This document shows positions 32,151-63,649 of a stretch of DNA of 64,000 nt, piece after piece. Each line of letters starts with the position of its first letter. Position 1 is the stretch's first letter. Origin of the DNA: Myxococcota bacterium (lineage in GTDB: Bacteria > Myxococcota_A > UBA796). Where the stretch lies: positions 16,986-80,985 of the forward strand of contig JBLHNG010000001.1 of assembly GCA_047621685.1 (NCBI GenBank). Direction: 5' to 3'. Below the pieces are notes generated by a model. It searched no databases and was not told the origin of the DNA. It saw nothing but the letters and a program-made list of their open reading frames with translations. Made by a program: the position numbers and the translations under genes.

Positions 32151-33482
32151 ATGGGTATGGATCACGCCGAGGAGAACCACCGCACCAAGGGGCTGACCCG
32201 GCTGACCATGGCCTGCAATGAGCGGTGTCCGTTCTGCAACGTGCCGATGGAGGACTACCCTCGCCTCACGCCGCCGGAGTCCGAGGTCCTCGCCGAGCTT
32301 CAGAGCTTCTTCGACAGCGGCGCGCAGACCCTGACCATCTCCGGTGGCGAGCCCACCCTGCTGAGGCGCCGGCTGCTGTCGCTGGTCGACAAGGCGCGGC
32401 AGGGCGGCATCCGCTCCATTGAGCTGCAGACCAACGCTGTGCTGATCGATGGGGCCTACGCGACAGATCTCGCTGAGGCTGGGCTGACCAGTGCGTTCGT
32501 CTCGCTGCTCTCTGAGAGCGCTGAGCTGCACGACCACCTCGCTGGCCTCCCCGGCGCCTTCCCCCGGTGCCTCGCGGGCATCGACGCGCTGATCGCGGCG
32601 GGGGTGTCCGTGACGCTCAACCCGGTCATCGCCTCTGCGACCCAGGCGCGGGTCGTGGACTACATGCGCTTCGTCGTGCAGCGCCTGCCGGCAGTGCGCT
32701 CGATCTCCCTGTCCGCAGTGCAGCCCCATGGCCGGGCCGCCGACAACCTCGATCTCCTGCCCGACTACGGCGTGCTCGCTCAGCAGCTTCCGGAGGCCCG
32801 ACAGGTCGCTCAGGCTGCTGGGGTCACCGTGCTCAACCCCTACTGCGGGCTGCCGCTGTGCGTGGGCTGGAGCGGTGACCTGGGGCAGTGTGTGGAGGCC
32901 GCAGAGGCCCGTGACGGCGGCTGGCGGGCGCGTCCAGGCATCGACAACCAGGGCAACAAGTCCCACGGCGCGGTGTGTGGTCCCTGCGTGCTGCGTCCCT
33001 GGTGTGGTGGCGCCTGGCATGCCTACTGGCAGCATCGGGATGGCGCGGGCATCGCACCCCCGGCCGAGCGGATCCCGCCGTGGCGTGCTGGAGCCTCGAC
33101 GGCCCCCTGGCAGTCGGTGGTCTCCGCGCCCGGTGGCTTGACCGATGCCGCTCGGACCGCACTTCAGTCCGCCGAGACCCCGACGATCTGGCTGTGGACG
33201 GATCGGCTGACCCGGGCAGATGTCGTGCCGCTGCTGACCTCCCGCTGCACTGCGGTGGGGCTGGAGGTGGTGGCTGACGGGCTGGCCTCCGGTGCTCGCC
33301 CCGACTGGCTCCGTCCGCTGCGGGCGCTGCTCCGTGGTGGCTGTGCGGCCCACCTCGCGGTGCGTCGGCCGCTGCTGGCAGGGGATCGTCAAGCGCTGGC
33401 AGCGCTGGCGGACCGGCTCGGGGTGACCGGAGTCGATGTGCTTCCCGAGAGACAGCATGCTTCCAGCACGGCAGGGGCCTGA
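32151..33482 (+). CDS. Radical SAM protein with partial SPASM/twitch-like C-terminal Cys motif (rSAM1)
   Basis: LTMACNERCPFCNV (CxxxCxxC), ISGGEPTLL, ELQTNAVLI, CGPCVLRPWCGG. Start taken at ATG 32151 (GTG 32142 is also possible). Confidence 0.85.
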   Translation: MGMDHAEENHRTKGLTRLTMACNERCPFCNVPMEDYPRLTPPESEVLAELQSFFDSGAQTLTISGGEPTLLRRRLLSLVDKARQGGIRSIELQTNAVLIDGAYATDLAEAGLTSAFVSLLSESAELHDHLAGLPGAFPRCLAGIDALIAAGVSVTLNPVIASATQARVVDYMRFVVQRLPAVRSISLSAVQPHGRAADNLDLLPDYGVLAQQLPEARQVAQAAGVTVLNPYCGLPLCVGWSGDLGQCVEAAEARDGGWRARPGIDNQGNKSHGAVCGPCVLRPWCGGAWHAYWQHRDGAGIAPPAERIPPWRAGASTAPWQSVVSAPGGLTDAARTALQSAETPTIWLWTDRLTRADVVPLLTSRCTAVGLEVVADGLASGARPDWLRPLRALLRGGCAAHLAVRRPLLAGDRQALAALADRLGVTGVDVLPERQHASSTAGA

Positions 33483-33483
33483 C

Positions 33484-34947
33484 ATGAGACAGCGACTTCC
33501 CCAGCCGATGTGGGTCGACATCGGCGGCACGACCCGAAGCCCCGAGCGTCTGGATGTGGTGCCGGCCCCAGCGCGCTCCACGGAAGGCCTCCGCAGTGAC
33601 ATCGCCGCCGCCGGGCGTCACTGGATGCTCACCGGCGGCGAGCCCACCCTGCGTGCAGACCTCTTAGCGCTGCTCTCCGGTGGCGGAATCCGCACCGACG
33701 GCCTCCTCCTCAGCCGCCCTGATGCCCTCGCCACCCTCCAGCGCGCCGGACTGAAGCGCGTGCGCATTCGCATCCACAGCAGCCGTCCCGACGCCCACGA
33801 CTGGCTCTCTGGAACGAAGGGCTCGCTTCGGCACGCCCTGAGGGGGCTCCAGGCATGCACCCGCGCGGGGATTCCCGCGGAGGTCGAGATCGTGCTCACC
33901 CGACCCACCATCGGCCACCTCGACGAGACCGTCGCTCTGGTGACCCGGCTGGGTGCTCGGGGGGTGGCGCTGCGTCGGCTCACCGCTCAGGGGACTGCAG
34001 CGGCGGACTTCATCGCCCTCTCCCCGCGCCTCGGTCTGCTGAGTGCCCCCCTGGAGGATGCAATGGCCGCAGCGGATGCGGCTGGTGTTCCGGCCTGGAC
34101 TGAGGGAGTGCCGACCTGCATGGCGCCCGCCTCTCGGCTGCGAGCGACGCCGACCGGGCGCACTCCGGGATGTGCAGACTGCCCGGCGGACTGCCCCGGC
34201 TACCCAACCGACTACGCAGAGCGCTTCGGGCTCGCGGAGCTGTGGCGGGTGGCTGGAGCGCCGTCCCGGGAGCAGATCCGGGTGGTGATCTCCCCAGACG
34301 AGGCCACCCGGGATGTCCGCCGACGCCTGGTCGCTGCTGCAATGTGTCGTCCAGAGACCCTGCGGGTGGTCGGGGCCGCATCTCACCCCGCACGGTCCGA
34401 CCTGCTGCGAGAGCTGCTGCGCCTGTCGGTCTCCAGTGTCGAGCTGTGTGGAGTGATGGATGGGCTCGCCACCCTCTCCGGGGCTGATCAGCTCCGGCTG
34501 CGTGGATTTGCCCGCATCGACGCCGCCCTCCTCGGCAGCACCGCAGCAACCCACGATGCCGCGGTCGGTCGTCCCGGTGCGTTTGATGCGGTGAAGCAGC
34601 TGCGCAATGTGACGTGTTACGGCATCGTGCGATCCGCTGAAGAGGCCGCTGCGTTCGTCTCCACAGGGGTCACCGATCTGAGGCTCGCCGAGCCGGGCGG
34701 CACCCTCACCTCGCTGTCTGGCATCGCCGCGCTGGCCCCTCTGATCCCGCCTTGTCTTGGTGGCAGCGGCAGCAGCCCGCCCCCTGCCGAGGACTTTCAC
34801 GGCTCCACCCCCGCCGGTCGGCAGGGCTGCTCCACAGACCGCATCGGCGCCACCACCCCCTGCCCCCACGCCGCGCGCTGTTCCGCAGCCGATCGCTGCC
34901 CGGGGCTCGCGGTTGGCTGGGATGCAGAAGGCGTGACACCGCTGTGA
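33484..34947 (+). CDS. Radical SAM-fold paralogue lacking the CxxxCxxC motif (rSAM2, probably catalytically degenerate)
   Basis: Retains MLTGGEPTLRADL, RIRIHSSRPDAHDWLSGTKGSL and CADCPADCPG. The N-terminal 60 aa contain no Cys (MWVDIGGTTRSPERL replaces the cluster loop). ATG lies 1 nt after the rSAM1 stop. Confidence 0.7.
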   Translation: MRQRLPQPMWVDIGGTTRSPERLDVVPAPARSTEGLRSDIAAAGRHWMLTGGEPTLRADLLALLSGGGIRTDGLLLSRPDALATLQRAGLKRVRIRIHSSRPDAHDWLSGTKGSLRHALRGLQACTRAGIPAEVEIVLTRPTIGHLDETVALVTRLGARGVALRRLTAQGTAAADFIALSPRLGLLSAPLEDAMAAADAAGVPAWTEGVPTCMAPASRLRATPTGRTPGCADCPADCPGYPTDYAERFGLAELWRVAGAPSREQIRVVISPDEATRDVRRRLVAAAMCRPETLRVVGAASHPARSDLLRELLRLSVSSVELCGVMDGLATLSGADQLRLRGFARIDAALLGSTAATHDAAVGRPGAFDAVKQLRNVTCYGIVRSAEEAAAFVSTGVTDLRLAEPGGTLTSLSGIAALAPLIPPCLGGSGSSPPPAEDFHGSTPAGRQGCSTDRIGATTPCPHAARCSAADRCPGLAVGWDAEGVTPL

Positions 34948-35008
34948 TGCTGCCACTCACCCTGGAGACAGAGGGCAAGTGGCCCCCACCTGCGATAGGA
35001 TCCGCTCA

Positions 35009-36814
35009 ATGAACCTTCGCGACACGATGCTGGAGCGCGAGCAGATCGCCAACCGCCGCAAGCACTGGGTGCGTGCAGTCACCGCCTGCAACAGCCGCTG
35101 TGTGTTCTGCCTGGACATGGACACCCCCCGCAACGTCTTCCTGCCCATCGAGGAGGTCCAGGCGGAGCTGCAGCGCGGTCGGGAGGAGCTGGACGCCGAC
35201 AAGGTGATCATCTCCGGCGGCGAGGCATCGCTGCATCCGTCGTTCCACGAGCTGGTCCGCTATGGACGCAGCATCGGCTACGACCGGGTCCAGACCGTCA
35301 CCAACGGCTGGAACTTCGCCGAGCGGGACTTCTACCGAGAGGCCATGGCTGCCGGGCTCGGCGAGATCACCTTCAGCCTCCACGGCCACACCGCCGAGCT
35401 GCACGACCGGCTCACTCGCCACCACGGCTCGTTTGCCCGGCTGATGAAGGGCATGATCCGGGCCATCCGCGATCCCCGCGGCCCGATCGTCAACGTCGAT
35501 GTGGTGATCAACAAGCAGAACGTCGGGGTGCTCGACCGCATCATCGAGCTGTGCATCTCCGTCGGCGTGACTGAGTTCGACCTGCTCCATGTCATCCCGC
35601 AGTCTGAGGCATACCGGAATCGTGAGGACCTGTTTTACGATGTTCGCGACCACATGGACGTGCTGCATCGGGTCTTCCGACTCAACCGCCATCCCCGGCT
35701 GGTGATCTGGACCAATCGCTTCCCGATCTCCTACCTGGAGGGGCTCGAAGACCTCATCCAGGACCCCCACAAGATGCTCGACGAGGTCAACGGCCGCCGC
35801 TTCCAGGTCCGCCGCTATCTCGACACCGGCGAGCCCCTCGACTGCCGCCAGCAGGAGCGGTGCGTGCACTGCTTCATCGAGCCGTTCTGCACCACCATGG
35901 ACCGGGTCATCACCACCCAGCACGCCGGGGGCTTCGAGGTGTGGCAGGGCGAGACACAGGGAGAGGATGCGGGTGAGCTGCCGTTTGGCTGCACCCGCTG
36001 GGGACAGACCGCCGCCTCCTGGGACGACGTGCAGTGGCCGGATGTCGGCGGGCTGGAGCTGACCGGAATGGCCGCTGAGCCCATCCCCCGGGCGCTGCCG
36101 GTTCCGGTTCGGATGATCGCCGATCACCCCGACCAGCTCACCGCCTGGCTGAGCGGTCCGCTGCCAGCGCTCGTCGAGGTCGAGGTGGTGCTCAACCAGG
36201 TGACCGCCCCCTGGCTGATGAAGCACCGCGAGACACTGCTCCCACTGCTCGACAGCCTCCGCATTCACCAGCCCTCCCACACGAAGCTGGCCGGGGCCAT
36301 GAAGCAGGATGTCCGCAATCCAGGTGGATTCTTCACCCGACTCGCGCTGCCGATCCGGGTCAGCGGTCTGCCCGCCTGCCTCACCACTGGTGCGGTGGTG
36401 GTCTCGCCCGTTGCTCGCCTCAGTCCGGCCCTGTTCGACCCCGAGCTGGGCCGCCTGGACTCCCGGGCACTCTCTGAGCACCACATCGAGCAGAACTACC
36501 GGGCGAAGTCCGAGCGCTGTCGGGATTGTGCAGTGACCAACGCCTGTGACGGCATCCACGTCAACATGATCCGCGACCAGGGGCTCGCCCTCGCCCGCCC
36601 CCTCGCGCAGGCCCCTGCCGTACACCCGCCCATCGGGGTTCGCATCGCCGAGGGCTGTCCCCCGCTGCCCCCCGCAGAGAGCCTGCCTGGGTTCGCGCCC
36701 CCCCAGGCCCCACCCCGCGATCCCCTCTCCGTCATGGCCGAGCAGATAGACGCCCGCCGCGAGGCCAAACGGGTGGCCCGGAAGAAGATGCTCGCTGATG
36801 CAAGGGAGAGCTGA
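35009..36814 (+). CDS. Radical SAM protein with two SPASM-like Cys motifs (rSAM3)
   Basis: VTACNSRCVFCLD, ISGGEASL, FSLHGHTAELHDRLTRHHGSF, CVHCFIEPFC, CRDCAVTNACDG. Alternative GTG start at 34979. Confidence 0.85.
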   Translation: MNLRDTMLEREQIANRRKHWVRAVTACNSRCVFCLDMDTPRNVFLPIEEVQAELQRGREELDADKVIISGGEASLHPSFHELVRYGRSIGYDRVQTVTNGWNFAERDFYREAMAAGLGEITFSLHGHTAELHDRLTRHHGSFARLMKGMIRAIRDPRGPIVNVDVVINKQNVGVLDRIIELCISVGVTEFDLLHVIPQSEAYRNREDLFYDVRDHMDVLHRVFRLNRHPRLVIWTNRFPISYLEGLEDLIQDPHKMLDEVNGRRFQVRRYLDTGEPLDCRQQERCVHCFIEPFCTTMDRVITTQHAGGFEVWQGETQGEDAGELPFGCTRWGQTAASWDDVQWPDVGGLELTGMAAEPIPRALPVPVRMIADHPDQLTAWLSGPLPALVEVEVVLNQVTAPWLMKHRETLLPLLDSLRIHQPSHTKLAGAMKQDVRNPGGFFTRLALPIRVSGLPACLTTGAVVVSPVARLSPALFDPELGRLDSRALSEHHIEQNYRAKSERCRDCAVTNACDGIHVNMIRDQGLALARPLAQAPAVHPPIGVRIAEGCPPLPPAESLPGFAPPQAPPRDPLSVMAEQIDARREAKRVARKKMLADARES

Positions 36815-37872
36815 TGGCCAACCTCGGCTACCTCCAGCTCACCCGCAACTGCGTCCAGCGCTGCCGGTTCTGCAGCAACCCGCCCACCGGGGTCGAGCTG
36901 ACCGAGCCCCAGATGCGGGGCCTCATCGATGAGCTGGTCGACCTGGGCTACGACGGGGTCATCCTGACCGGCGGCGAGCCCAGCTACTCCCCGCTGCTGT
37001 TCCCCGCCCTGAAGTACGCCACCGAGAAGGGGCTGTACAACCGGATGATCACCAACGGGCAGCGTCTCGCGGAGCCGGACTTCTTCCAGAAGTGCGTCGA
37101 TGCCGGGCTGTCCCACATCCACGTCTCGCTGCACTCCTGCCGTCGGGAAGTCCACGACTACATCACCCGCTACCCCGGGGCCTATGATGTGCTCGTCCGC
37201 TGCCTGGAGTTGGTGCCGAAGATGGGCATCACCTGTGACATCAACACGGTAATAAACACGTATAACGCTGATCATCTCCATGAGACGGTCCAGTGGCTCT
37301 GTGAGCGGTTCCCGTTCATCCGCCACTTCGTCTGGAACAACATGGACCCGGACGGCAACCGCGCGGAGGACAACCCCGACTGCATCGCGTTTCACCATGA
37401 GTTCCAGGTCAGCCTGGAGCTGGCGATGGACTACCTCTCCCGCACCGGACGCACCTTCCGGGCCGAGCGGGTTCCGCTGTGCTTCATGCGGCGCTACGCC
37501 CACTGCTCGACTGAGACCCGCAAGATCGTCAAGGAGGAGGAGCGCTGCATCCAGTTCCTCGACAACAAGGGCTTCGTCCACCAGCTGGAATTCCTGCACG
37601 GCAAGGGAGACGCCTGCAATGCGTGCCGCTGGGACGGCATCTGTGCAGGCATGTTCTCGATGGCGCGGACTTTCGATGAGCGGGAGCTGTCGCCGATCTT
37701 CGAGGATCCCCTCCCGGTCATTCGGGCGGTGCTCGGAGAGGAGCCCACCCCGGCCCTTCTGGAGCGGATCGAGGCCAGGAAGGGGCGCCGAAGCACCACC
37801 GAGCAGCCCGACGAAGAGACGCGGGGTGCGTACCGGATGCTGCCGCTGTTCCGCTCAGCGGTGAGAGAGTAG
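36814..37872 (+). CDS. Radical SAM protein with SPASM-like Cys motif (rSAM4)
   Basis: LTRNCVQRCRFCSN, LTGGEPSY, ITNGQRL, VSLHSCRREVHDYITRYPGAY, CNACRWDGICAG. ATG overlaps the rSAM3 stop (TGATG). Confidence 0.85.
   Translation: MANLGYLQLTRNCVQRCRFCSNPPTGVELTEPQMRGLIDELVDLGYDGVILTGGEPSYSPLLFPALKYATEKGLYNRMITNGQRLAEPDFFQKCVDAGLSHIHVSLHSCRREVHDYITRYPGAYDVLVRCLELVPKMGITCDINTVINTYNADHLHETVQWLCERFPFIRHFVWNNMDPDGNRAEDNPDCIAFHHEFQVSLELAMDYLSRTGRTFRAERVPLCFMRRYAHCSTETRKIVKEEERCIQFLDNKGFVHQLEFLHGKGDACNACRWDGICAGMFSMARTFDERELSPIFEDPLPVIRAVLGEEPTPALLERIEARKGRRSTTEQPDEETRGAYRMLPLFRSAVRE

Positions 37873-38552: not shown

Positions 38553-38556
<4 letters not shown>
37855..38556 (-). CDS. PP2C-family Ser/Thr protein phosphatase
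   Basis: NEDSCGV, VADAHFG, ILASDGL and GGEDNIAVALL motifs. Confidence 0.85.
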
Positions 38557-39560
<1,004 letters not shown>

Positions 39561-39626
39561 TGTGGAATCCCCATCTCTCTCAGTGAGTTGAGCGCAGGAT
39601 ACCCTGCGGTTTCAGGAGGAGTTGTC

Positions 39627-41600: not shown

Positions 41601-41629
41601 GCCACCGTTGTATCGGTAGACTCCCATCC

Positions 41630-43163: not shown

Positions 43164-43212
43164 TGGTGTCTCCGTTTCGTTTCGGAACATCAACGGGCGC
43201 TTCGGAGCGGGC

Positions 43213-43573: not shown

Positions 43574-44863
43574 TCAGGGAATCGGAGAGTCTGGAGCAGA
43601 CAGGAGCACCTCAGCCGGTCCCGGGCCACTCAGGGCCTCCAGGAACGCCACCACATCGGCGACACCCGCTTCATCCAGCTCAAGCGGCACCATCAGGTCT
43701 TCCCGGTGCCCCCAGTCTGGCTCCTCGTCCAGCTCATTGTAGAAGGTGACCACCTCCGTGAGAGACTCGAAGTGACCGCCGTGCATATACGGTGGGTGTG
43801 AGGCGACGTTTCTCAGAGAGGGGACCTTGAACTGGCCGAGCTGTTCGGGGGTCTGGGCGAGGAAGTTGAGGGTGATCTCAGCGGACGCCGGATCGTCGGA
43901 GTAGGGGCCGGTGCCGTTGAACGGGCTCTCCAGCAGAGCGGTGATGCCGTCGAACCGGCCAGTGTCCTCAGGGCGCAGCCAGTCCCGGGGGCCGAGGCCG
44001 ATGTTGTGGAACTCGTTGTTGGAGTAGTTCGCACCGGCGTGGCAGAAGTGGCAGTTGCCCTCGCCGACGAACACCTCCAGGCCGCGCTGGGCCTCCTCGG
44101 AGAGCAGCCCGGAGGCGGCATCTTCGCCTTGTGAGACCAGGGTGTCGATGTAGTCGTCTGCGGGGGCGGGGCCGGTGACGATGAGGCGCTCATAGGCCGC
44201 GATGGCCTTGCCGACGTTGGCGAAGATGGTGTTGATGGTGGTCTGGTCTTCGGCAGCCATGCCGTCCCAGGCGATGTGGAGCGGATCGGTGATGTCCTCC
44301 ATCGGACGACCGGCGGGGGGGAATCGCTCAGCGTCGGAGAGGTCGGGCAGCGTGGTGAAGACGGCAGCATAGGCCGCAGAGAGGTCCGCATCGTTGGCCA
44401 GGAGGTGTGCGACCTGGAGCCGGGTGAAGTCCATCTCACCGGGATCTTCGATGGGGCCGAGCGCCTGGCACCAGTGGGAGTCGCAGCGGCCGTCCCAGAA
44501 CATCCACCGGTTGTAGACGGTGTTGAAGATGGAGGGGGCGTGACGGCCGGTGGTGGAGAGGCCCTCAGACAGTGCGAGCCCGTCGCCAAAGCCCAGTGTC
44601 GGCTCGTGGCAGGTCGCACAGGACACCGCGCCGTTGTCGGAGAAGCGGTCGTCGAAGTAGAGCCAGCGGCCGAAGTGTGCGGCGTCTTCGTCGTCTGCGA
44701 CGGCGTTGGTTGGGTCCGCAGGGATGGCCGGAAGCGGGGTGAGAGAGGCGAGGATCGCCAGCTCTTCATTGGTGAACCGGCCGGTCTGCTCTGCGGTGTC
44801 TCCGGTGTCCGGGCTGCCGGAGCAGGCGAAGAGGATCAGGAGACTACTCACAGCATTCCACAT
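43574..44863 (-). CDS. Di-haem cytochrome c peroxidase / MauG family
   Basis: Two CxxCH motifs (CATCHEP, CHFCHAG), PSLRNV...PYMHGG distal motif, lipoprotein-like N-terminus (LILFACSG). Confidence 0.9.
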   Translation of the reverse strand: MWNAVSSLLILFACSGSPDTGDTAEQTGRFTNEELAILASLTPLPAIPADPTNAVADDEDAAHFGRWLYFDDRFSDNGAVSCATCHEPTLGFGDGLALSEGLSTTGRHAPSIFNTVYNRWMFWDGRCDSHWCQALGPIEDPGEMDFTRLQVAHLLANDADLSAAYAAVFTTLPDLSDAERFPPAGRPMEDITDPLHIAWDGMAAEDQTTINTIFANVGKAIAAYERLIVTGPAPADDYIDTLVSQGEDAASGLLSEEAQRGLEVFVGEGNCHFCHAGANYSNNEFHNIGLGPRDWLRPEDTGRFDGITALLESPFNGTGPYSDDPASAEITLNFLAQTPEQLGQFKVPSLRNVASHPPYMHGGHFESLTEVVTFYNELDEEPDWGHREDLMVPLELDEAGVADVVAFLEALSGPGPAEVLLSAPDSPIP

Positions 44864-45257
44864 CGAAGTAGCCCTCTTCAGTCACGCCATCCTGGGTCAG
44901 CGCGAACTCAATCGTCCAGTGGCCGGTCATGTGGAACAGGAGCGGGGTGGCGGTGAAGGTACCGTCGCCGTTGTCGGTGACTTCCGGGGTGACGTTCATG
45001 CCGTGCCCGTGGCTGGTCATCACCGCATCAAGTTCCACGGAAGCACCCGTTAGCGGTGTGCTTCCATCGGACTCAAATGCGGAGAGGGTCACCGAGAAGT
45101 AGTCATCGTTGGGGATGGAGGTGGGGTCGGTGGTGTAGGAAGCCATGAACGAGCCGCCGTCCGTGGCAGCGGTGGTGGTGAAGTTGGTCTCCACCACGCT
45201 CCCAGAGTCGCCCTCTTTGTCTCCACAGCCAATCAGCATGGCAAGCATCCACATCAT
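44844..45257 (-). CDS. Small lipoprotein, YtkA/FixH-like
   Basis: MMWMLAMLIGCGD lipobox. MTSHGHGMNVTPEVTDNGDGTFTATPLLFHMTGHWTIEF resembles the YtkA-like domain. Overlaps the peroxidase gene by 20 nt. Confidence 0.55.
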   Translation of the reverse strand: MMWMLAMLIGCGDKEGDSGSVVETNFTTTAATDGGSFMASYTTDPTSIPNDDYFSVTLSAFESDGSTPLTGASVELDAVMTSHGHGMNVTPEVTDNGDGTFTATPLLFHMTGHWTIEFALTQDGVTEEGYFDVECCE

Positions 45258-45316
45258 TGCTCTCCTCCTCGTTCATGTATCTGGCACCTTCGATACGGCC
45301 ACACGCTACCTCTGGA

Positions 45317-50236: not shown

Positions 50237-50252
50237 CCCACTCTGTATCGCG

Positions 50253-50820: not shown

Positions 50821-51699
50821 ATGCCCACTACTGTCGCCACCCACTCTGGGCCGTTCCACGCCGATGACGTCCTGGCCTGGGCGCTCATCCGGACCTTCTT
50901 CGACGCCGATGCTGCGCTGATCCGCACCCGGGATCAGGCCCTCATCGAGACCACAGACATCGTGGTAGACGTCGGCGGCCTGTACGATCCGGCCACGCTC
51001 CGCTTCGATCACCACCAGCAGGAGTACACCGGGCTGCTCTCCTCCGCAGGCATGGTGCTGCACTGGCTGGCAGATGACGGGCGCATCACCCCTGCGCTCG
51101 CTGGGGAGCTTCGCGGGCAGATGGTGGACTACGTCGATGACGTCGACAATGGCCGGAGGATGCCGGACACCGCGGTGCCCTGCTTCGCCTTGCTGGTCAG
51201 CGCCTACAACCAGGGCTGCCACACCCTCGAAGAGTTCGACGCCGCCTTCCTGCGTGCGGGAGAGGCCGCCGCCGGCATGGTCGCTGGGATCGTCGCTGGA
51301 CACACGGAGCGACTCGCCAGCGCCGCCACCGTGATCGCCGCCATGGACGCCGCCACAGCAGCCGGTCAGAACGTCATCTTCATGGACCGCTACCACTCCT
51401 GGAAGGACATCTACTTCGCCAACGGCGGCGAGGATCACCCCACCGAGTACGTTGTCCATCCCGGCATCGATGGGCGCTGGCGGGCGGTGGGCATCCCCCC
51501 GGTTCGCGGCAGCTTCGCTCAGAAGCGCGCCTTTCCGGAGGCCTGGGCCGGGCTGCGTGACGAGGAGCTGTCTGCGGTGACCGGCGTGGAGGGCGCGCTG
51601 TTCTGCCACAAGAACCGGTTCATCGCGGTGTTTTTGACCCGCGAGGGTGTGCTGGAGGCGATGGGGCGGTTTGGCCTGCTGGTCGGCTTCAGTCGATGA
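50821..51699 (+). CDS. MYG1/UPF0160 family metal-dependent hydrolase
   Basis: N-terminal THSGPFHADDVLA and FDHHQ motifs. Confidence 0.8.
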   Translation: MPTTVATHSGPFHADDVLAWALIRTFFDADAALIRTRDQALIETTDIVVDVGGLYDPATLRFDHHQQEYTGLLSSAGMVLHWLADDGRITPALAGELRGQMVDYVDDVDNGRRMPDTAVPCFALLVSAYNQGCHTLEEFDAAFLRAGEAAAGMVAGIVAGHTERLASAATVIAAMDAATAAGQNVIFMDRYHSWKDIYFANGGEDHPTEYVVHPGIDGRWRAVGIPPVRGSFAQKRAFPEAWAGLRDEELSAVTGVEGALFCHKNRFIAVFLTREGVLEAMGRFGLLVGFSR

Positions 51700-53254
51700 C
51701 CTCGCCCGCCAGGTAGACCGCCTCGACCGTCAGACCAGACAGCTCAGCAGGCTCGACATCCCACGGAGACTCAGAGAGCACCGTGATGTCAGCAGTGCAG
51801 CCGACCGACAGGCACCCCAGGACCCCGTCCTGCCCGACCGCTGCCGCGCCGCCTGCGGTGTAGGCGGTCAGGGCGGCGGCGAGGCTCATCGGATGCTCCA
51901 CACCCACCGCTGACCACAGGCTGTTCGCGACATGCAGGGTGGGCCACACCGGCCAGTCCGTGCCCAGCGCCATCGGGATGTCGTAGCTCTCGAGGGTGGT
52001 GTAGTCGTAGGCCCGGGCGAACCGCTCGGAGCCCCAGGCCTCCGCAGAGTCCCCAAACGCTGCGACGAGGGCGTGGGGTGGCTGCACGGAGACCACCAGA
52101 CCCAGCGCGCTGATGCGGGCGTAGTCGGCCTCGTCGATGAGCACTGCGTGGTCGAGGACGTGGGGCTGGCTCAGCGGTGCCACGGCCTCCAGGGCATCGA
52201 GCACCGCAGCGACCGCAGCGTCGCCGTTGGCGTGGAACTTCAGCGGCAGCCCCACAGCCTCGGCCCGGGCGACCACGTCGAGGATCTGCTCGGCGGTGAA
52301 GTAGTGGCTGCCGTGCTCGTCGTCGGTGCCCTCATGCGGCTCGCTGACCCAGCTCTGCGCCGTGCCCATCGAGCCATCCACCCACACCTTGGCCCCGGCA
52401 AACCGGACCCGCTCGCCGTCGTACACCCCTGCCAGTGCTGCCACTGACTCAACGTCCTCCGTCGAGAACAGCGGCACGTAGTAGTAGACGCGAACCGGAA
52501 GCTCTCCGCTGTTCTCCAGGGTCTCGTACAGCCACGGCCAGGTCAGGTCGAGGCCAGGGCTGGCGAGGATCTCGGAGATCGAGGTGATGCCAGAGGCCGG
52601 CAGGGTGGCGAGCTGCTCGCGGAGGGGGGTGAGGAACTGCTCGTCGTTGTAGTCGGCCAGGGCGACCGGGGTGATCAGCGACAGGGCCTCCTCCAGCAGC
52701 AGCCCGGTGGGCTCGCCGGTCTTTGGGTCCCGGACGATCTCGCCGCCGATTGGATCGGGGGTGTCCGCGGTGATGCCCGCAGCATTCAGCGCGGCGGAGT
52801 TGACCAGGGCGGCGTGGCCGGAGCTGTCGACGAGGATGACCGGCCGGTCAGAGACGACCGCGTCGATCGCCACACCGCTTGGGTCTTCCACCAGGGCGTG
52901 GACCCAGCCAAACCCGATGATCCAGGGCTCGCTCGGGGCCTCCTCGGCGTAGTCTTCCACCGCAGAGAGGACGCTGTTCATCGAGCCGGTGCCCAGCATC
53001 ACCAGGCGCTCCATGACGAACGAGCCGGGCAGGAAGTGGGCGTGGGCGTCGTGGAAGCCAGGGAAGGCGGTGCCAGTCAGCGCGATGGTCTGTGTGTCGT
53101 CGCCGATCAGCGCCTCGGCGTCTGCCCCGGTGGCGACCACCACCCCATCGGTGACCGCCAGCGCGGTCGTGACTGTCTCGGCGTCGGTAAAGATCTCCCC
53201 GGTGAAGACCTGCTCGGCAGGCTCTCCGCCGCAGGCCAGCATCAGCATCAGCAT
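51689..53254 (-). CDS. Amidohydrolase-3 (YtcJ-like) family metallo-hydrolase lipoprotein
   Basis: MLMLMLACGG lipobox, FPGFHDAHAHF, KFHANGD, LGTDWP. The ORF-track 798-aa ORF is trimmed to ATG 53254, 2 nt after the upstream gene stop. Confidence 0.8.
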   Translation of the reverse strand: MLMLMLACGGEPAEQVFTGEIFTDAETVTTALAVTDGVVVATGADAEALIGDDTQTIALTGTAFPGFHDAHAHFLPGSFVMERLVMLGTGSMNSVLSAVEDYAEEAPSEPWIIGFGWVHALVEDPSGVAIDAVVSDRPVILVDSSGHAALVNSAALNAAGITADTPDPIGGEIVRDPKTGEPTGLLLEEALSLITPVALADYNDEQFLTPLREQLATLPASGITSISEILASPGLDLTWPWLYETLENSGELPVRVYYYVPLFSTEDVESVAALAGVYDGERVRFAGAKVWVDGSMGTAQSWVSEPHEGTDDEHGSHYFTAEQILDVVARAEAVGLPLKFHANGDAAVAAVLDALEAVAPLSQPHVLDHAVLIDEADYARISALGLVVSVQPPHALVAAFGDSAEAWGSERFARAYDYTTLESYDIPMALGTDWPVWPTLHVANSLWSAVGVEHPMSLAAALTAYTAGGAAAVGQDGVLGCLSVGCTADITVLSESPWDVEPAELSGLTVEAVYLAGEVID

Positions 53255-53256
53255 GG

Positions 53257-53745
53257 TTACTCCTGGAACTGCTTGCGAAGCTCGCGCATCTCCAGCCGAC
53301 GTGCCCGGCGGAGGTCGGCCTCTTTCGTTCGGCGGATCATGTCGACATCCTCGCCCGGATCCAGCGACACGATGCTCCGGGGCTGGCCGTGGGCGTCGAG
53401 CGCGACGAAGGTGAGGTAGGCGGTGCAGCAGTGGACCAGGGAGCCGGTGGCGGGATCTTCGGCATCCACCCGCACCCCGACTTCCATCGAAGTCCGCCAC
53501 GCCTGGTTGACCTGGGACTTGAGGATCACGACCATGCCCCGCCGCACTGGCCGGAGGAAGTGAAGCTGATCCATCGAGGCTGTGACCACCGCTCCCCGGC
53601 AGAACCGCTGCGCAGAGATTGCCGCGCAGATGTCGCACCACGCTGCGATCTGACCGCCGAACACGGTGTCGTGGTTGTTGGTGTGGGTCGGGAGCACGAT
53701 CTGGTGCATCTCGGAGCGGCTGTTGGCGGGGTTCTTTGGGCTCAT
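53257..53745 (-). CDS. Acyl-CoA thioesterase (hotdog fold, YciA-like)
   Basis: VLPTHTNNHDTVFGGQIAAWCD and the ASMDQLHFLRPV pattern. Confidence 0.8.
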   Translation of the reverse strand: MSPKNPANSRSEMHQIVLPTHTNNHDTVFGGQIAAWCDICAAISAQRFCRGAVVTASMDQLHFLRPVRRGMVVILKSQVNQAWRTSMEVGVRVDAEDPATGSLVHCCTAYLTFVALDAHGQPRSIVSLDPGEDVDMIRRTKEADLRRARRLEMRELRKQFQE

Positions 53746-53783
53746 GGAGGCACCGTATCGCGGAACCGGGGTATGTCGGAGAG

Positions 53784-54608
53784 ATGAAGCAGACGCTGAT
53801 CACCGGAGCCAACACCGGACTCGGGCTGGCCTCCTCCAAGATGCTTGCCCGCGCCGGACACCACGTCATCATGCTGTGCCGGAGCCCGGAGAAGGGGGCT
53901 GCGGCGCTGGCGGAGGTCGCTGCAGAGGGCTCTGCGGAGCTGGTGCTGTGCGACCTGTCAGACTTCGAGCAGGTCCGTGGACTGGCGCAGACTTTTGCAG
54001 GACGCCCCCTCGATGTTCTGCTCCACAACGCCGGGATCGTGCTCACCGAGCGCAAGACCTGCCCCCAGGGCTTCGAGCGGACCATCTCTGTGAACCACCT
54101 CGCCCCCTACCTGCTCACCCACACCCTCTGGGGCTCGCTTCAGGAAGGCAGCCGGGTGGTGATCGTCGCCTCGGATGCTCACCGGGCTGGCACGCTCGAT
54201 CTTGAGACCTGGATGGCGGAGGAGAAGTACTCCACCATCCAGCAATACGGCCGCAGCAAGATGTGTAACATCCTGTTCTCTGATGCTCTCTCCCGCAGAG
54301 CAGAGCCCCACGGTGTGACCGTGAACTGTCTCCATCCCGGTGTGGTCAATACTTCGCTCGGAGACGGAAACGACGTCTGGTACAGCTTCCTTGGCAAGTG
54401 GGCCAAGCGCTTCATGACCAGCCCGGAGAAGGGCGCTGACACCCAGGTCTGGCTGGCGGACTCCCCGGAGGTTGAGGGGAGGACCGGCGGCTATTACGCG
54501 AAGCGAAAGCCCGGAAAGCGTAGCCGTCAGGCCAGTGATGCGGTGCTGTCTGAGGCCCTGTGGCAGCGCAGCGCCGACCTCCTCGGTATCAAGTCCGACT
54601 GGCCCTGA
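53784..54608 (+). CDS. Short-chain dehydrogenase/reductase (SDR)
   Basis: ITGANTGLGLA (TGxxxGxG), NAGI, and the Y..SK catalytic pair (YGRSKMCN). Confidence 0.85.
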   Translation: MKQTLITGANTGLGLASSKMLARAGHHVIMLCRSPEKGAAALAEVAAEGSAELVLCDLSDFEQVRGLAQTFAGRPLDVLLHNAGIVLTERKTCPQGFERTISVNHLAPYLLTHTLWGSLQEGSRVVIVASDAHRAGTLDLETWMAEEKYSTIQQYGRSKMCNILFSDALSRRAEPHGVTVNCLHPGVVNTSLGDGNDVWYSFLGKWAKRFMTSPEKGADTQVWLADSPEVEGRTGGYYAKRKPGKRSRQASDAVLSEALWQRSADLLGIKSDWP

Positions 54609-56594: not shown

Positions 56595-56607
56595 TACCTT
56601 CCCCGGC

Positions 56608-59369: not shown

Positions 59370-59518
59370 AGTGTCCTTGGATGCAGCCGTTACACTATGC
59401 GGCTCACAGGAGTCCTCAACATGAAATCACCGGGTCCATTCCACCTGAACACCACGCGGCTCGTCCTCGGTCGAGGCTCTCAGGCCACCACAAAAGCCGT
59501 AACACCGGGGCGCGAGCG

Positions 59519-60694
59519 ATGAGGGCCATGCTCGGGGATCGCAGTCTGTTCCCGGACCTCTCCTGGGAGGTCTACCTCAACCACGCTGCGATCTCTCCGC
59601 CCTCCACCCCGGTCCTCCAGGCTGCAGCAGCGGTGTCGCAGTCCTATGCATCACAGGGTGTTACGGCATTCCCGATTTGGATGGAGTCCCGGGAGGTTCT
59701 GCGTGGAAAGCTCGCCCGCCTCATCCATGCCGCACCCGAAGACATTGCCCTGACTGCCAACACCACCGCCGGGGTGATCGCGGTGGCCAATTGTTTCCCG
59801 TGGAACAATGGGGACGGTGTGGTGGTGTTCTCTGGGGAGTTTCCCACCAACGTCACCCCCTGGCAGCAGGCTGCGCGCAGCTTCGGGCTTCGGCTCACTC
59901 AGCTCTCCCTGGATGGCTTCGGGGATGGCAGCGGCGCTGGGCTGGCTCGGCTGGAGGCGGCGCTGAAGCAGGGCGTGGTGCTGGTGGCGGTCAGCGCGGT
60001 GCAGTTCCAGACCGGACTGGCCATGCCGATCAAGGCGATGGCCGACCTCGCCCACCGCTACGGTGCTCAGCTGTTCGTGGATGGCATCCAGGCGGTCGGT
60101 GCGGTCGAGCTGGATGCACGCGATGTGGACTACCTCGCTGTTGGCTCTCACAAGTGGCTGATGGGCATCGAGGGCTGTGGGTTCCTCTACGTTCATCCCG
60201 ATCGCATCGGCGCGTTGGTGCCGCGCATGGCCGGCTGGTTGTCCCATGACGACGGGCTCGGTTTCTTGTTCAACGGCGCGGGACACCTCCGCTATGACCG
60301 GCCGATTCGCCGTCGGGCCGACTTCTTAGAGGCCGGGGCATACAACTCGGCGGGCTTCCAGGCGCTGCTCGCCTCGGTGTCTCTCATCGAACACCTTGGT
60401 GTTACGGCGATCTTTGCGCACATCACCGCCTACCTCGACGCCCTGGAGCTCGGCCTGCTCGCCCAGGGCTTCACCAGCCTTCGAGCACCCGATCCCGCTG
60501 CGCGCTCGGGCATCCTCAGTGTGCTTCCGCCAGAAGGGGTGGATCTCCTCCAGCTCGCTGAGGCCCTCGCCGCTCGTGGCATCGGGGTGACCACTCCTGA
60601 CGGGCGCCTGCGGTTCTCGCCACACTGGCCCAACAGCCTCGATGAGGTCCCGGTGGTTCTGGCGGCAACCGAGGCCGCGATCAGATCGGCGTGA
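59519..60694 (+). CDS. Class V aminotransferase / cysteine desulfurase-like PLP enzyme
   Basis: YLNHAAISP, ALTANTT, and SHKWLMG (PLP-Lys context). The 3' end overlaps the convergent rSAM gene by 14 nt. Confidence 0.8.
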   Translation: MRAMLGDRSLFPDLSWEVYLNHAAISPPSTPVLQAAAAVSQSYASQGVTAFPIWMESREVLRGKLARLIHAAPEDIALTANTTAGVIAVANCFPWNNGDGVVVFSGEFPTNVTPWQQAARSFGLRLTQLSLDGFGDGSGAGLARLEAALKQGVVLVAVSAVQFQTGLAMPIKAMADLAHRYGAQLFVDGIQAVGAVELDARDVDYLAVGSHKWLMGIEGCGFLYVHPDRIGALVPRMAGWLSHDDGLGFLFNGAGHLRYDRPIRRRADFLEAGAYNSAGFQALLASVSLIEHLGVTAIFAHITAYLDALELGLLAQGFTSLRAPDPAARSGILSVLPPEGVDLLQLAEALAARGIGVTTPDGRLRFSPHWPNSLDEVPVVLAATEAAIRSA

Positions 60695-61721
60695 GCCCGT
60701 CGTCGCCCCAGATGTCCAGGTAGTTCTGCCAGACTCCCTCGCACAGGTCGGCCCGGGTGCAGGTGCTGCAGGCTTTGGGGTGGCCCTTGAGGTCGTGGCG
60801 CTTGCGGTCCTGCCAGTTGAATCGGGCGCGACCGCCGTCGATTCGGGTCACGCCGTCGACCTCACCGTCGCCGTGCTTGTCGCTTCGGATCGAGCAGTCC
60901 GTAGACAGGTCGCGGTACTCGCCCATGTACTTCTTCAGCAGCCGCTCGCTCCGGCGTAGCTCCACCGGCAGCACACAGAGGGGGAAGCCGCCGAAGGTGA
61001 AGGTCTTCTTGAAGTGGAACTCGTTGAGCAGGATCGCTTTCTGGAGGATGGGCACGACCTTGTCGTACTGTGGGGTCAGGGAGCGGCTGCCCTCGGCGTA
61101 GCCCTCGGGGCGCACGAAGTTGACCCGGATGTCATCCAGCTCCAGCTCATCATAGAAGAACCGCATCATCTTCGGCAGATAACGGTAGTTCCAGCCGTTC
61201 AGGACGACGTTGATGGCGAGCCCATCGGGCAGGTAGCCGGCGGCACGCTTGGTGTTGAGGTAGCGGATGGCGGTGCACTTCTTCTCGAAGTTGCCAGGCA
61301 CCCGGGTGAGCCGGTCTTCCAGCGAGGCGGTGTGGCCATGCATGGAGATGGTGATTCGGGTCAGCCCGGCGTCGAGGATGCGGTCGGTGAAGTGCGTGAG
61401 GCGCAGCTTGGTGGCGTTGGTGGCGATGGCGATGCGGGTGAAGCCGATCTCCTTGCCATAGGCCACGGACTGCACGATCTTCGGGTAGGTCGTGGGCTCT
61501 CCACCCAGAAAGCCCAGCGAGCGGTGCCCGGCTGCGTGCCACTGCCGGATCTCCGCCTGCATCTGGTCAAACGGCATGTAGCTGCGGTCTTCTTTCTTGG
61601 GCAGACCGTCGAGGCAGAACACGCAGCGGTTGTTGCACGCCTTGCCGATGTTGATCTCGACGTTGCGGCGGACATCCCGGAGGGGGTTGTACAGCTGGTT
61701 GGCGGGGTGTTCTTCAGCCAT
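60681..61721 (-). CDS. Radical SAM protein with SPASM-like Cys motif (rSAM-C, third maturase of the HxS operon)
   Basis: IGKACNNRCVFCLDG, LGGEPTT, IATNATKL, ISMHGHTASLEDRLTRVPGNF, CSTCTRADLCEG, C-terminal ...DGLTPI. Confidence 0.85.
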   Translation of the reverse strand: MAEEHPANQLYNPLRDVRRNVEINIGKACNNRCVFCLDGLPKKEDRSYMPFDQMQAEIRQWHAAGHRSLGFLGGEPTTYPKIVQSVAYGKEIGFTRIAIATNATKLRLTHFTDRILDAGLTRITISMHGHTASLEDRLTRVPGNFEKKCTAIRYLNTKRAAGYLPDGLAINVVLNGWNYRYLPKMMRFFYDELELDDIRVNFVRPEGYAEGSRSLTPQYDKVVPILQKAILLNEFHFKKTFTFGGFPLCVLPVELRRSERLLKKYMGEYRDLSTDCSIRSDKHGDGEVDGVTRIDGGRARFNWQDRKRHDLKGHPKACSTCTRADLCEGVWQNYLDIWGDDGLTPI

Positions 61722-61730
61722 AAGCTCAGC

Positions 61731-62690
61731 CTATCCCAGAATCGGGGTCAGATCGGTGGTCGGCCACTTGCGGGCATATTCGTCGAACACCCCCATGCAG
61801 ACGCCGCGAAGGGTGCAGCCCTCGCACTGCGCGACATGGACTCGCTTGCGGTCAGGTGCCCAGGAGTAGAGGCCCTCGAACTTCACCGAGCCGGGGTGAG
61901 CGGTCCACTCCACGGTCACCCGGGGATCCCAGTGCAGATCGTTGGACAGCGCGCGGTGGCTGCCCAGCAGGCACATCGGCACCCCGAAGAAGCGCAACAC
62001 GGCGGTCTCTGCGGCGGACACGGAGCGGGGCAGGACATCGGCGAGCACACTCAGCGGCACCGCGAGGTCTTCGTAGGCATCGAGCCCTGCGCCCTCGGGG
62101 GTGGTGTTGGAGACCACGATGAGCTTCGCGCCCAGCGAGTCCGCCAGGGCGATGGTCTCGGGGAGCTTCTCAGCATTGTGACGGGTGATCACGGTGTTGA
62201 TGAAGGCTCCGAAGTCTCCTCGAAGCGCGATACAGCGGCGGATTGCCTCGGTGACCCGGTCGAAGCTGCCCTCGCGGCGGGCGAGGGCGTCGTGGGTGGC
62301 GGCATCTGGGCCGTGCAGGGAGAACAGGCCCTCGTCGAGGTACTCGATGACCGTCTCTGCGAAGCCTGGTCGGGACAGCATGGTGCCGATGGTGCCGATG
62401 GAGGTGCGCATCCCCAGCTTCTTGGACAGCCGGAGGACGTCGAGAAAGCGGGGGTGTATCGTCGGCTCACCGCCGGTGAAGTGCACCCCGTCTCCGCCCC
62501 GGGCCGCATGTCGACGCAGCACGGTCGCCGCCCGCCCCCAGGTCACCGGGAAGCGCTTGAAGCGCTCCATCCGGTGCTCCTCGGAGCAGAACACGCAGCG
62601 CTCCGGGCAGGTGTAGGTCAGGTGCAATTCCAGCCGGCGCATGATCTGACCCTCAGGGCCGATCCAGGGAGTGAGGTTCTGCTCGGTCAT
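61731..62690 (-). CDS. Radical SAM protein with SPASM-like Cys motif (rSAM-B)
   Basis: LTYTCPERCVFCSE, FTGGEPTI, FSLHGPDAATHDALARREGSF, CEGCTLRGVCMG, C-terminal ...TDLTPI. ATG 62690 overlaps the upstream stop (ATGA). Confidence 0.85.
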   Translation of the reverse strand: MTEQNLTPWIGPEGQIMRRLELHLTYTCPERCVFCSEEHRMERFKRFPVTWGRAATVLRRHAARGGDGVHFTGGEPTIHPRFLDVLRLSKKLGMRTSIGTIGTMLSRPGFAETVIEYLDEGLFSLHGPDAATHDALARREGSFDRVTEAIRRCIALRGDFGAFINTVITRHNAEKLPETIALADSLGAKLIVVSNTTPEGAGLDAYEDLAVPLSVLADVLPRSVSAAETAVLRFFGVPMCLLGSHRALSNDLHWDPRVTVEWTAHPGSVKFEGLYSWAPDRKRVHVAQCEGCTLRGVCMGVFDEYARKWPTTDLTPILG

Positions 62691-63649
62691 GCCGCTCCCC
62701 TCCGCTTTCGATAGGCACGCAGCGCGGGGTAGAGCCCGCGACACAGCCGGGTCAGCTCTGCATCGACCGCCATGGTGGACTGCCACACCTTCTCTGGGAG
62801 GTGAGTCGCCAGCAGCCCGTTGATCGCCTCGGCTTTCTCGGCGAGGGCCTCGGGAGTGGGCGGGTCATCGAGGGTGCCGATGGTGGTCTGATCGCGGAGG
62901 TGGTCCAGGGTGCCGGAGAGCCCGACATTGGAGGGGTGGATGGTGCGGTCGGAGTCGACCACGAAGCCGGTGTTGAAGAACGGGGTGGGTGCCTGGGTGA
63001 ACAGGTTTCGCAGGTAGAAGTGTCGACCGGAGCGCCAGCGATCCTCGATGATCCCTCGGATGGCGTCGAAGGAAGCCGCCAGCGCGGCGAGCTGGTGGGT
63101 CTTCCAGGGGATGTAGTAGCCGGGGAGCAGGTTGAACCGGTAGAATCCAAGCGACAGCAGGTGGCTCAGGTTGTCGGCGGCCCGGCTGGCGGTGGCGGGC
63201 GGGATGGTCTGGGTGATGACCAGCCGGGTGAGGGTGAGCAGCGACTCACGCAGGGTCATCAGGTGGTCGTAGGCGTCCGCGACTCCAGGCAGTGCCCGAC
63301 GCATTCGGCGGTGATCTTCGGGCGCACCGTCCATGGAGATGGTCAGGATTCCCTTCTTGTAACCTCGGAGATACTCGATCCACTCCGGCGTGAGGCCGAG
63401 ACCGTTGGTGGAGAGGTAGACCCGCCGGATCTCCGGACGATCTCGGGCGGCCTCCATCGCGGCCCGGACCACCTCAGGGACCAGCAAGGGCTCGCCGCCA
63501 AACAGCTTGACGTCACCGCCGCCGTATCGATCGGCGAACAGAGACACCGCCAGCCGGGCGTCGTCCGGTGTCAGGGAGGGCCAGCCGTCTTTTGCCGTGG
63601 GGCAATACGAGCAGCGGAGGTCACAAGCCCGGGTGACGGTGAGAATCAC
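62687..63649 (-). CDS. Radical SAM protein without C-terminal Cys cluster motif (rSAM-A, first maturase after the HxS precursor)
   Basis: VTRACDLRCSYCP (CxxxCxxC), LFGGEPLL, LSTNGLGL, ISMDGAPEDHRRMR. GTG start 12 nt after, and in the same frame as, the precursor stop. Confidence 0.85.
   Translation of the reverse strand: MILTVTRACDLRCSYCPTAKDGWPSLTPDDARLAVSLFADRYGGGDVKLFGGEPLLVPEVVRAAMEAARDRPEIRRVYLSTNGLGLTPEWIEYLRGYKKGILTISMDGAPEDHRRMRRALPGVADAYDHLMTLRESLLTLTRLVITQTIPPATASRAADNLSHLLSLGFYRFNLLPGYYIPWKTHQLAALAASFDAIRGIIEDRWRSGRHFYLRNLFTQAPTPFFNTGFVVDSDRTIHPSNVGLSGTLDHLRDQTTIGTLDDPPTPEALAEKAEAINGLLATHLPEKVWQSTMAVDAELTRLCRGLYPALRAYRKRRGAA

Follow-up and report, generated by a model that had tools for sequence, protein, structure and literature searches.

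Two radical SAM loci of a Myxococcota bacterium as probable modules of one type 4 His-Xaa-Ser peptide-maturation system

We analysed a stretch of 64,000 nucleotides from a Myxococcota bacterium (GenBank assembly GCA_047621685.1, contig JBLHNG010000001.1, positions 16,986 to 80,985 of the forward strand), which is called the window below and is numbered from its first base. The window contained seven genes of the radical S-adenosylmethionine (rSAM) type at two loci within 32 kb. An original prediction, made from the letters alone, had assigned all seven to one subfamily and had proposed either that they carried out several modification steps in one cascade or that they belonged to duplicated systems, each with a substrate of its own. 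We found that the cascade was favoured because orthologues of the locus 1 genes adjoined the cassette of locus 2 in related genomes, and the duplication was rejected. It was quite likely that the two loci were complementary modules of one 'type 4' His-Xaa-Ser (HxS) peptide-maturation system. According to the same reading, the substrate would be HxsA4, a ribosomal precursor of ~116 aa with ~17 His-Gly-Ser units and an HGQW end. Locus 1 was interpreted as the accessory module, which was physically fused to the cassette in many relatives.

Locus 1 comprised r1 to r4 and a hydroxylase gene, and locus 2 comprised rA, rB, rC and the peptide gene:

30903-32096, minus strand: alpha-ketoglutarate HExxH (aKG-HExxH) peptide beta-hydroxylase (TIGR04267), divergent from r1
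32151-33482, plus strand: r1, 443 aa, HxsC-like rSAM protein
33508-34947, plus strand: r2, 479 aa, predicted pseudo-rSAM protein
35009-36814, plus strand: r3, 601 aa, HxsC-like rSAM protein
36814-37872, plus strand: r4, 352 aa, HxsC-like rSAM protein
60681-61721, minus strand: rC, 346 aa, HxsC-like rSAM protein
61731-62690, minus strand: rB, 319 aa, HxsC-like rSAM protein
62687-63649, minus strand: rA, 320 aa, rSAM protein, not HxsC-like
63662-64000, minus strand: HxsA4-type precursor peptide gene (NCBIfam NF038313), 5' end cut by the window edge
63672-63830, minus strand: 9-nt tandem array of 17 copies coding the HGS repeat (Tandem Repeats Finder)

All seven open reading frames (ORFs) of the original prediction were present, and each peptide string quoted in it was recovered at the expected place and in the expected frame. 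The ORF starts were refined via gene calls on identical contigs; the r2 start at 33508 followed the call on L054 (related loci and contigs are cited by L numbers). By a rough estimate, seven rSAM genes per 32 kb was far above chance, since much less than one would be expected if such genes made up ~0.5-1% of all genes. The G+C content was ~66% across the window, and the 23 kb between the two loci were occupied by unrelated genes.

The precursor peptide and its cassette

The peptide gene, which had been missed in the original prediction, was located on the same strand as rA and 12 nt upstream of it. The next junctions of locus 2 were similarly tight, with a 4-nt overlap between rA and rB and a 9-nt gap between rB and rC; at locus 1 the ATG of r4 overlapped the r3 stop codon (ATGA). 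Both loci were scanned for promoters and terminators, and nothing exceeded the shuffled expectation.

The peptide consisted of a leader (…KLPTLTRKATDHLQ…ELLLKADALLADPATAG…) followed by an HxS core, in the order …KLPTLTRKATDHLQ…ELLLKADALLADPATAGVV-HAS-HCS-(HGS)15-HGQW*, with 17 His-Xaa-Ser units. It matched the NCBIfam model NF038313 (HxsA4) with 96.8 bits (cut-off 55) over profile positions 1-87 of 93, with the leader aligned and 112 residues visible. The A2 and A3 models were matched more weakly than HxsA4, and no match to the canonical HxsA model was listed. The reading frame was open to base 64000. Since the orthologous peptide at L006 had 116 aa and started with MSNDDSTRTEK, about four more codons are expected beyond the window edge.

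The repeat itself indicated the frame. The 15 HGS units differed only at codon position 3, and all of these differences were synonymous (CAT/CAC, GGC/GGT, TCT/TCC); the same differences would alter amino acids in other frames. Moreover, we collected 39 homologous peptides from related loci, and all of them (39/39) ended in HGQW. Their cores contained from 4 to 58 HxS units (median 15), and their leaders shared the pattern KLPxLxRKPxDFLQ, together with LLxKADALLADP in the closer relatives.

Several side observations concerned the peptide genes in other assemblies. The gene at positions 5058-5579 of L013 encoded 58 HxS units in which HGS and HAS were mixed, and L025 had two HxsA4 genes in one cassette (8466-8636 and 9603-9980) with 19 and 42 units. 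Nine metagenome contigs (L001, L012, L016, L024, L029, L043 and L051-L053) ended inside the 9-nt HGS repeat, and exact copies of the window proteins were found on short Logan contigs that broke at the repeat. Additionally, the peptide gene was left uncalled in L005 and L058. Because assemblies break in the repeat and gene callers skip such short repeat-encoded precursors, HxsA4 genes are systematically under-annotated.

A genome scan anchored on rA produced 45 loci, almost all of them in Myxococcota-type metagenome-assembled genomes (MAGs), and all components were mapped onto these loci. The conserved core had the order [PKD/Ig protein]-[Tat-signal protein]-HxsD-(HxsD-like)-HxsB-HxsA4-rA-rB-rC. 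Directly upstream of the peptide we found HxsB (488 bits at L006, 507 at L005 and 536 at L055; cut-off 370), HxsD (66 bits at L006 and 61 at L005; cut-off 50) and an HxsD-like protein (53 and 52 bits at the same two loci; cut-off 41). Orthologues of rA, rB and rC with 45-90% identity followed the peptide in the same order. At L006, identity to the window was 85-90%, and there was synteny with the right-hand end of the window. Locus 2 was accordingly read as the 3' part of this cassette, and it almost certainly continues past base 64000 with the genes for HxsB, HxsD, the HxsD-like protein and the Tat-signal and PKD/Ig proteins.

The genes of locus 1 belonged to the same neighbourhoods. Of the 45 rA-anchored loci, at least 23 had orthologues of the HExxH hydroxylase, r1, r2, r3 and r4 adjoining the cassette, and several of these arrangements were intimate. 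For example, L010 and L044 had the order HExxH (minus strand), r2, r3, r4, Tat, HxsD, HxsB, HxsA4, rA, rB. In L019 and L023, r4 was placed immediately 5' of rA, and in L021, L034 and L045, rC was followed after a gap of 4-5 kb by HExxH (minus strand), r1 and r2. An independent search anchored on r3 also found the cassette beside locus 1 in two of three long contigs (L056 and L058). The identity between orthologues was 74-82% for r4, 52-88% for rB, 45-86% for rA and 57-90% for rC; it was 48-63% for r3, 54-62% for r1 and 29-43% for r2.

Besides HxsD, HxsB and a single precursor, a locus from Omnitrophota that was labelled HxsA4 by NCBI had at least seven other rSAM genes. Of these, four were HxsC-like, one was a B12-rSAM fusion and one encoded a double-rSAM protein; the best HxsC-like protein scored 208 bits against the HxsC4 cut-off of 500. 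Since this locus also had a battery of many rSAM genes, such a battery is a cross-phylum hallmark of HxsA4 systems.

The rSAM proteins and the hydroxylase

All seven rSAM proteins passed the Pfam Radical_SAM model (PF04055) with 35.6-87.3 bits (gathering threshold 29.5). None of them matched Pfam SPASM (PF13186) at E<=0.01, and none reached any curated NCBIfam cut-off. The assignment of all seven to one subfamily could be kept, loosely, for r1, r2, r3, r4, rB and rC, and failed for rA. The six proteins aligned with each other over most of their length, with 21-33% identity in an all-versus-all BLASTP comparison. Solved rSAM structures reached at most 32-49 bits against them and only in the N-terminal core. 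Thus, the six formed a loose HxsC-like clade (25-31% identity) whose members were closer to each other than generic superfamily similarity would give; for rA, the likeness was no better than that among rSAM proteins in general.

Family models gave a similar picture. The best NCBIfam match of r1, r3, r4, rB and rC was HxsC or HxsC4, below the cut-off in each case. The best match of r2 was AhbD (58 bits), with HxsC in second place (48 bits). The HxsC scores (TIGR03977; cut-off 267.9) were 91.6 bits for r1, 87.2 for r4, 75.5 for r3, 65.4 for rC, 62.0 for rB and 48.0 for r2, and rA had no match to this profile. For HxsC4 (NF038332; cut-off 500) they were 129.4 bits for rC, 86.3 for r3, 78.4 for rB, 63.8 for r4, 61.3 for r1 and 36.1 for r2. 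With the N_Twi_rSAM profile (cut-off 170), the scores were 35-44 bits.

The CX3CX2C motif of the SAM cluster was present in r1, r3, r4, rA, rB and rC. The original prediction had described a [FIV]S[LM]H strand and a following helix in all seven proteins. The strings were indeed found in all of them, and the AlphaFold2 model of rC had a beta-strand at 122-126 and a helix at 132-139 followed by G-N-F, in agreement with the predicted shape. The S[LM]H form of this beta4 motif was common to the six and was missing from rA and HxsB; in rA the whole S[LM]H..HD..G.F form was absent. The six also shared a C-terminal module of the form C…CX2CX5C-x-G-[VMA]-[WF], often followed by [LI]-[ST]-P-[IL]. A Cys-rich motif had been noticed in all proteins except rA, and this was borne out: CX2CX5C was found in every orthologue of r1, r3 (in two copies), r4, rB and rC, and it was missing from 43 of 43 rA orthologues. 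The [LV][TS]P[IL] string had been placed near the terminus of four proteins, and this was not so in r4, where LSPI was ~55 residues from the C-terminus, although it occupied the equivalent place when counted from the Cys motif.

Apart from the SAM motif, rB and r1 each had four invariant Cys, rC and r4 each had five, and r3 had two sets with four Cys per set. The seven-Cys motif of SPASM domains was not found, since the X3C part was missing and each protein had only CX2CX5C with four to five invariant C-terminal Cys. These sets would suit a single auxiliary cluster in each module, as in twitch domains, and not with a full SPASM domain. Each orthogroup retained its own cluster signature and its own auxiliary Cys set.

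The catalytic-type HxsC-like proteins had the following individual features. r1 carried CNERCPFC, C237 with CX2CX5C, and a C-terminal extension of ~140 aa; its orthologues at 54-62% identity were found in L021, L034, L045 and L056. r3 carried CNSRCVFC and two conserved C…CX2CX5C modules, of which the second (C467, C514, C517 and C523 in the 611-aa numbering) was fully conserved and located within the C-terminal alpha/beta half, at residues ~310-530. The AlphaFold2 model of r3 had a predicted local distance difference test (pLDDT) score of 91, and its Foldseek alignments to rSAM structures were only ~186-300 columns long, compared with 601 residues in the model. An 88-kb contig of a Myxococcota MAG carried a copy of r3 (P0121) with 100% identity. 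r4 carried CVQRCRFC and five conserved C-terminal Cys, and its orthologues (74-82%) were found directly upstream of the Hxs cassette in at least 14 loci. rB carried CPERCVFC and four invariant C-terminal Cys (C240, C289, C292 and C298). rC carried CNNRCVFC and five invariant C-terminal Cys, and was aligned to HxsC4 from end to end. Its homologues were 62-93% identical for the best 120 of 405, and its model (pLDDT 86) had BlsE and SuiB as best matches in the PDB with template modelling (TM) scores of 0.58-0.63. In general, the models of rC and r3 resembled BlsE, SuiB and SkfB only generically (TM <=0.63).

rA was of a different kind. It had the CX3CX2C motif only, and no other Cys was conserved in 43 orthologues. 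Its score against the other six proteins was 23-33 bits, limited to the N-terminal core, and HxsB scored equally against them. rA passed Pfam Radical_SAM with 68 bits, and its best NCBIfam match was PapB with 71.6 bits (cut-off 340), with 32.7 bits for HxsB (TIGR03978; cut-off 370). The best PDB matches were CteB (36.8 bits) and SkfB (33.2 bits), so that the likeness was to the N-terminal core of PapB, CteB and SkfB. All of its 44 orthologues (45-86% identical) were located just downstream of the peptide.

We class r2 as a conserved pseudo-rSAM protein, which has the rSAM fold and is not an rSAM enzyme. CX3CX2C was not found in any frame of r2, in its orthologues from L010, L035, L044, L057 and L058, or, by an exhaustive search, in any of 116 cluster representatives of the family. 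This loss had gone unnoticed in the original prediction, and a sequencing error was ruled out as its cause by six independent genomes and 116/116 representatives. The protein kept the GGEP motif and the core fold signature, and its Pfam Radical_SAM match (35.6 bits) covered profile positions 46-163 only. Moreover, the C-terminal half of r2 gave a collinear alignment to the N-terminal half of the same protein (E=0.044) and also to the region from GGEP to beta4 of r1, r3, r4 and rB, which suggests two degenerate rSAM half-barrels in tandem. At E<=1e-30, r2 was matched by about 115 cluster representatives.

The hydroxylase gene divergent from r1 had also been missed in the original prediction. 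Its product matched TIGR04267 with 97.6 bits (cut-off 40) over the complete profile (1-177 of 177) and carried the motif HETQH. Orthologues were located beside r1 or r2 and the Hxs cassette in L010, L013, L015, L020, L021, L034, L035, L044, L045, L046, L056 and L058.

Proposed pathway and its alternatives

The pathway proposed here, including its step order, chemistry, export and biological role, was drawn around the observed identities, profile scores, orthology, co-localisation, repeat frame and Cys patterns. HxsB (an rSAM/SPASM protein) and the HxsD proteins would engage the leader and the core and introduce the first radical modification in each HxS triad. The enzymes rB, rC, r1, r3 and r4, with a SAM cluster and a four-Cys auxiliary cluster, would then carry out successive and differing radical steps on the repeats, and rA, with the SAM cluster only, might perform a further distinct one. 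r2, unable to bind a SAM cluster, may be a non-catalytic partner or a scaffold. The aKG-HExxH enzyme would beta-hydroxylate residues after cross-linking, with His as the likely target. Enzymes of this family beta-hydroxylate His and Asp residues once the peptide bears a cyclophane (PMC12636437). Finally, the product was probably exported, as suggested by the Tat-signal and PKD/Ig proteins next to the cassette.

By analogy with canonical HXS, the system could have an antiphage role, or it could have another one such as metal binding. Caution was needed with respect to the antiphage role because there was no peptidoglycan-binding domain, the core was not basic, conservation was strong, the genes were dispersed and their surroundings were ordinary. 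Tentatively, and with a probability slightly below even, HxsA4 might represent a distinct class among the ribosomally made peptides that undergo post-translational modification (RiPPs). In such a class, up to eight rSAM-fold proteins (HxsB, rA, the five HxsC-like paralogues and the Cys-less r2) and the aKG-HExxH enzyme would processively turn a poly(His-Gly-Ser) of 4-58 identical units into a repetitive polymer with heavy cross-linking and oxidation. If so, the chemistry would be without described precedent, and the role may differ from antiphage defence; one example would be a material that is exported and serves metal binding or redox. Such a class would occur in Omnitrophota and be conserved among Myxococcota-type lineages.

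Some observations weighed against a single system. HxsB and HxsD were not seen within the window itself, and none of the six HxsC-like proteins reached the curated cut-offs of HxsC or HxsC4. The two modules were apart in the window (23 kb), in L006, in the Sandaracinaceae loci and in L057, so that their linkage came from comparative genomics. Additionally, rC orthologues with ~70% identity were found as lone rSAM genes in L002 and L004 (8001-9095), flanked on one side by a dTDP-rhamnose (rmlABCD-like) operon and on the other by an MMPL transporter gene, and no HxS peptide was present within 8 kb of them. These lone genes could point to a non-peptide substrate for rC.

The separation of the modules would fit two independent systems, in which locus 2 matures HxsA4, locus 1 matures a different precursor encoded elsewhere, and their adjacency in other genomes reflects the clustering of RiPP genes. 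Locus 1 also had a divergent promoter region and a tailoring enzyme to itself. However, no candidate precursor was found near locus 1 in the gaps of the window, and no second small ORF recurred across the 45 loci, where the unlabelled clusters were antisense shadow ORFs. Moreover, the adjacent modules were interleaved and co-directional, with r4 before rA in L019 and L023 and the order r2-r3-r4-Tat-HxsD in L010, L044 and L058, and the Omnitrophota HxsA4 locus combined one precursor with many HxsC-like rSAM proteins. Two separate systems were therefore considered unlikely. In a further reading, a small molecule (for instance a sugar nucleotide or cofactor) would be the substrate of the HxsC-like enzymes, or of some of them, and these would be mere neighbours of the Hxs genes. 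The lone rC orthologues would agree with this, the closest solved structure was BlsE, a nucleotide-sugar decarboxylase, and conservation was unusually high for RiPP tailoring enzymes (62-93% for rC and 74-82% for r4). On the other hand, the likeness to BlsE was weak and generic (45-49 bits, TM 0.58), and the best family-level matches were HxsC and HxsC4, which are rSAM proteins of peptide systems. The coupling to the precursor was also tightly operonic, as seen from the three short junctions of locus 2, and the rA-rB-rC order after the peptide was conserved across phyla. We thus regarded a small-molecule substrate as very improbable.

Descent of the two loci from one ancestral operon by segmental duplication was effectively refuted, although the six proteins shared domain architecture and motifs. 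The paralogues had only 21-33% identity versus 45-90% between orthologues, and the best matches across the loci (r1 to rC, r3 to rC, r4 to rB and none for rA) were neither collinear nor one-to-one, so that the score matrix excluded r1/rA, r3/rB and r4/rC as sister pairs. Since orthologue identity was far above paralogue identity and the cross-locus matches were not collinear, the loci were not duplicated operons. Additionally, they had four versus three genes, with the pseudo-enzyme and the HExxH gene only at locus 1 and rA and the peptide only at locus 2, and all seven orthogroups occurred together in single superclusters of other genomes. The preferred reading remained that of two complementary modules.

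This reading has some practical value. In canonical HXS, HxsA is matured by HxsB, HxsC and HxsD, and one HxS repeat shows a +8 Da change that depends on these three proteins (PMC13128918); even for this antiphage system, only that mass change is known of rSAM chemistry on such repeats. The variant described here offers a simpler and more repetitive substrate, with a short leader and identical HGS units, together with a much larger and separable enzyme set that includes a conserved pseudo-enzyme. Stepwise reconstitution and mass mapping should therefore be feasible. More generally, dispersed rSAM clusters in large Myxococcota genomes can be linked into one pathway via comparative synteny.

Other genes of the window and comparison with known systems

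Two further genes of the window recurred near the cassettes, both of them loosely, and no other window gene did so:

53257-53745, minus strand: 4HBT-fold thioesterase (Pfam 4HBT)
59381-60694, plus strand: class-V aminotransferase, SufS-like below the cut-off (Pfam Aminotran_5), convergent with rC

The aminotransferase was found again beside parts of the cassette in L006, L044 and L057. It may be a loose associate that supplies sulfur or Fe-S clusters, given the weak association. The thioesterase was 63% identical to one downstream of the L005 cassette, and thioesterase genes were near the cassette in L006, L018, L030, L031, L043, L044 and L047. A predicted ORF of 798 aa at 51689-54085 (minus strand) turned out to be two genes, for this 4HBT thioesterase and an Amidohydro_3 protein.

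An M16 peptidase pair, a MauG/MbnH-like dihaem peroxidase, a PP2C protein and an acidic CTERM protein were rejected as parts of the system because none of them recurred near the cassettes. With the Hxs-associated MauG model (cut-off 340), the dihaem peroxidase scored 84.6 bits, which was less than with the MauG and MbnH models. The region 43574-47747 (minus strand) between the loci, with this peroxidase, a YtkA-like protein and the M16 pair, had the look of RiPP or cofactor maturation. The gene at 38553-39560 (minus strand) encoded a very acidic D/E/G-rich protein of 335 aa that contained the run GNGNGN (a 6-nt repeat in the DNA at 38712-38758). Its hydrophobic C-terminus ended in RRRR and was CTERM/myxosortase-like, with only weak matches below the cut-offs. 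Two giant secreted-type proteins of 1372 and 1199 aa, encoded at 22656-26774 and 26852-30451 (plus strand), had MopE 'putative metal-binding motif' repeats together with Chlam_PMP and beta-helix regions, and their DNA contained tandem repeats of 138, 276 and 414 nt (24981-26573). These two were among the neighbouring genes that gave the window a Myxococcota-like appearance.

Canonical HXS (HxsD-HxsB-HxsC-HxsA) is an antiphage system of four genes with one HxsC, and 99.7% of it is found in Pseudomonadota (Nat Commun 2026, PMC13128918). Similar to it, the system described here had a His-Xaa-Ser repeat substrate and HxsC-like rSAM partners, and its relatives carried HxsB and HxsD above the cut-offs. 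Unlike it, the substrate was a peptide of ~116 aa with a leader and a core of 17 (4-58 in relatives) HGS units ending in HGQW, and HxsC was replaced by five HxsC-like paralogues, rA, the pseudo-rSAM protein and the aKG-HExxH hydroxylase. Moreover, the hosts were Myxococcota-type MAGs, the genes were partly dispersed and in another order, and there was no defence-island context. The PADLOC 2023 scan gave weak viperin-core matches only, and since its library was without Hxs models, this was no evidence on defence. With respect to the type 4 models of NCBIfam, the peptide passed HxsA4, and rC spanned HxsC4 yet scored 129 versus 500 bits, so that it was not an HxsC4 member.

There was also a likeness to RiPPs of the triceptide or three-residue cyclophane type (ChlBH; HaaB, HtkB), which have a three-residue motif starting with an aromatic residue or His, rSAM/SPASM and aKG-HExxH enzymes, and His cross-links. 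rSAM enzymes are able to form His-C2 cross-links (PMC11499958). However, triceptide pathways use one rSAM protein, often fused to HExxH, and few motifs, whereas up to eight rSAM-fold proteins and at least 17 identical units were combined here. A cyclophane in the peptide described here would be putative. Similar to the SPASM/twitch rSAM proteins (PqqE, MoaA, BlsE and SuiB), the enzymes had a partial TIM-barrel, GGEP, the beta4 motif and C-terminal Cys for an auxiliary cluster, but they differed in the missing Pfam SPASM match, in having four to five Cys rather than seven, and in a likeness restricted to the core (32-49 bits; TM <=0.63).

A literature search found nothing on HGS-repeat or HxsA4 systems, nor a publication on this composition, and the only earlier trace of the system is the NCBIfam names HxsA4 and HxsC4. 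The system is a new and much expanded variant of the known Hxs kind.

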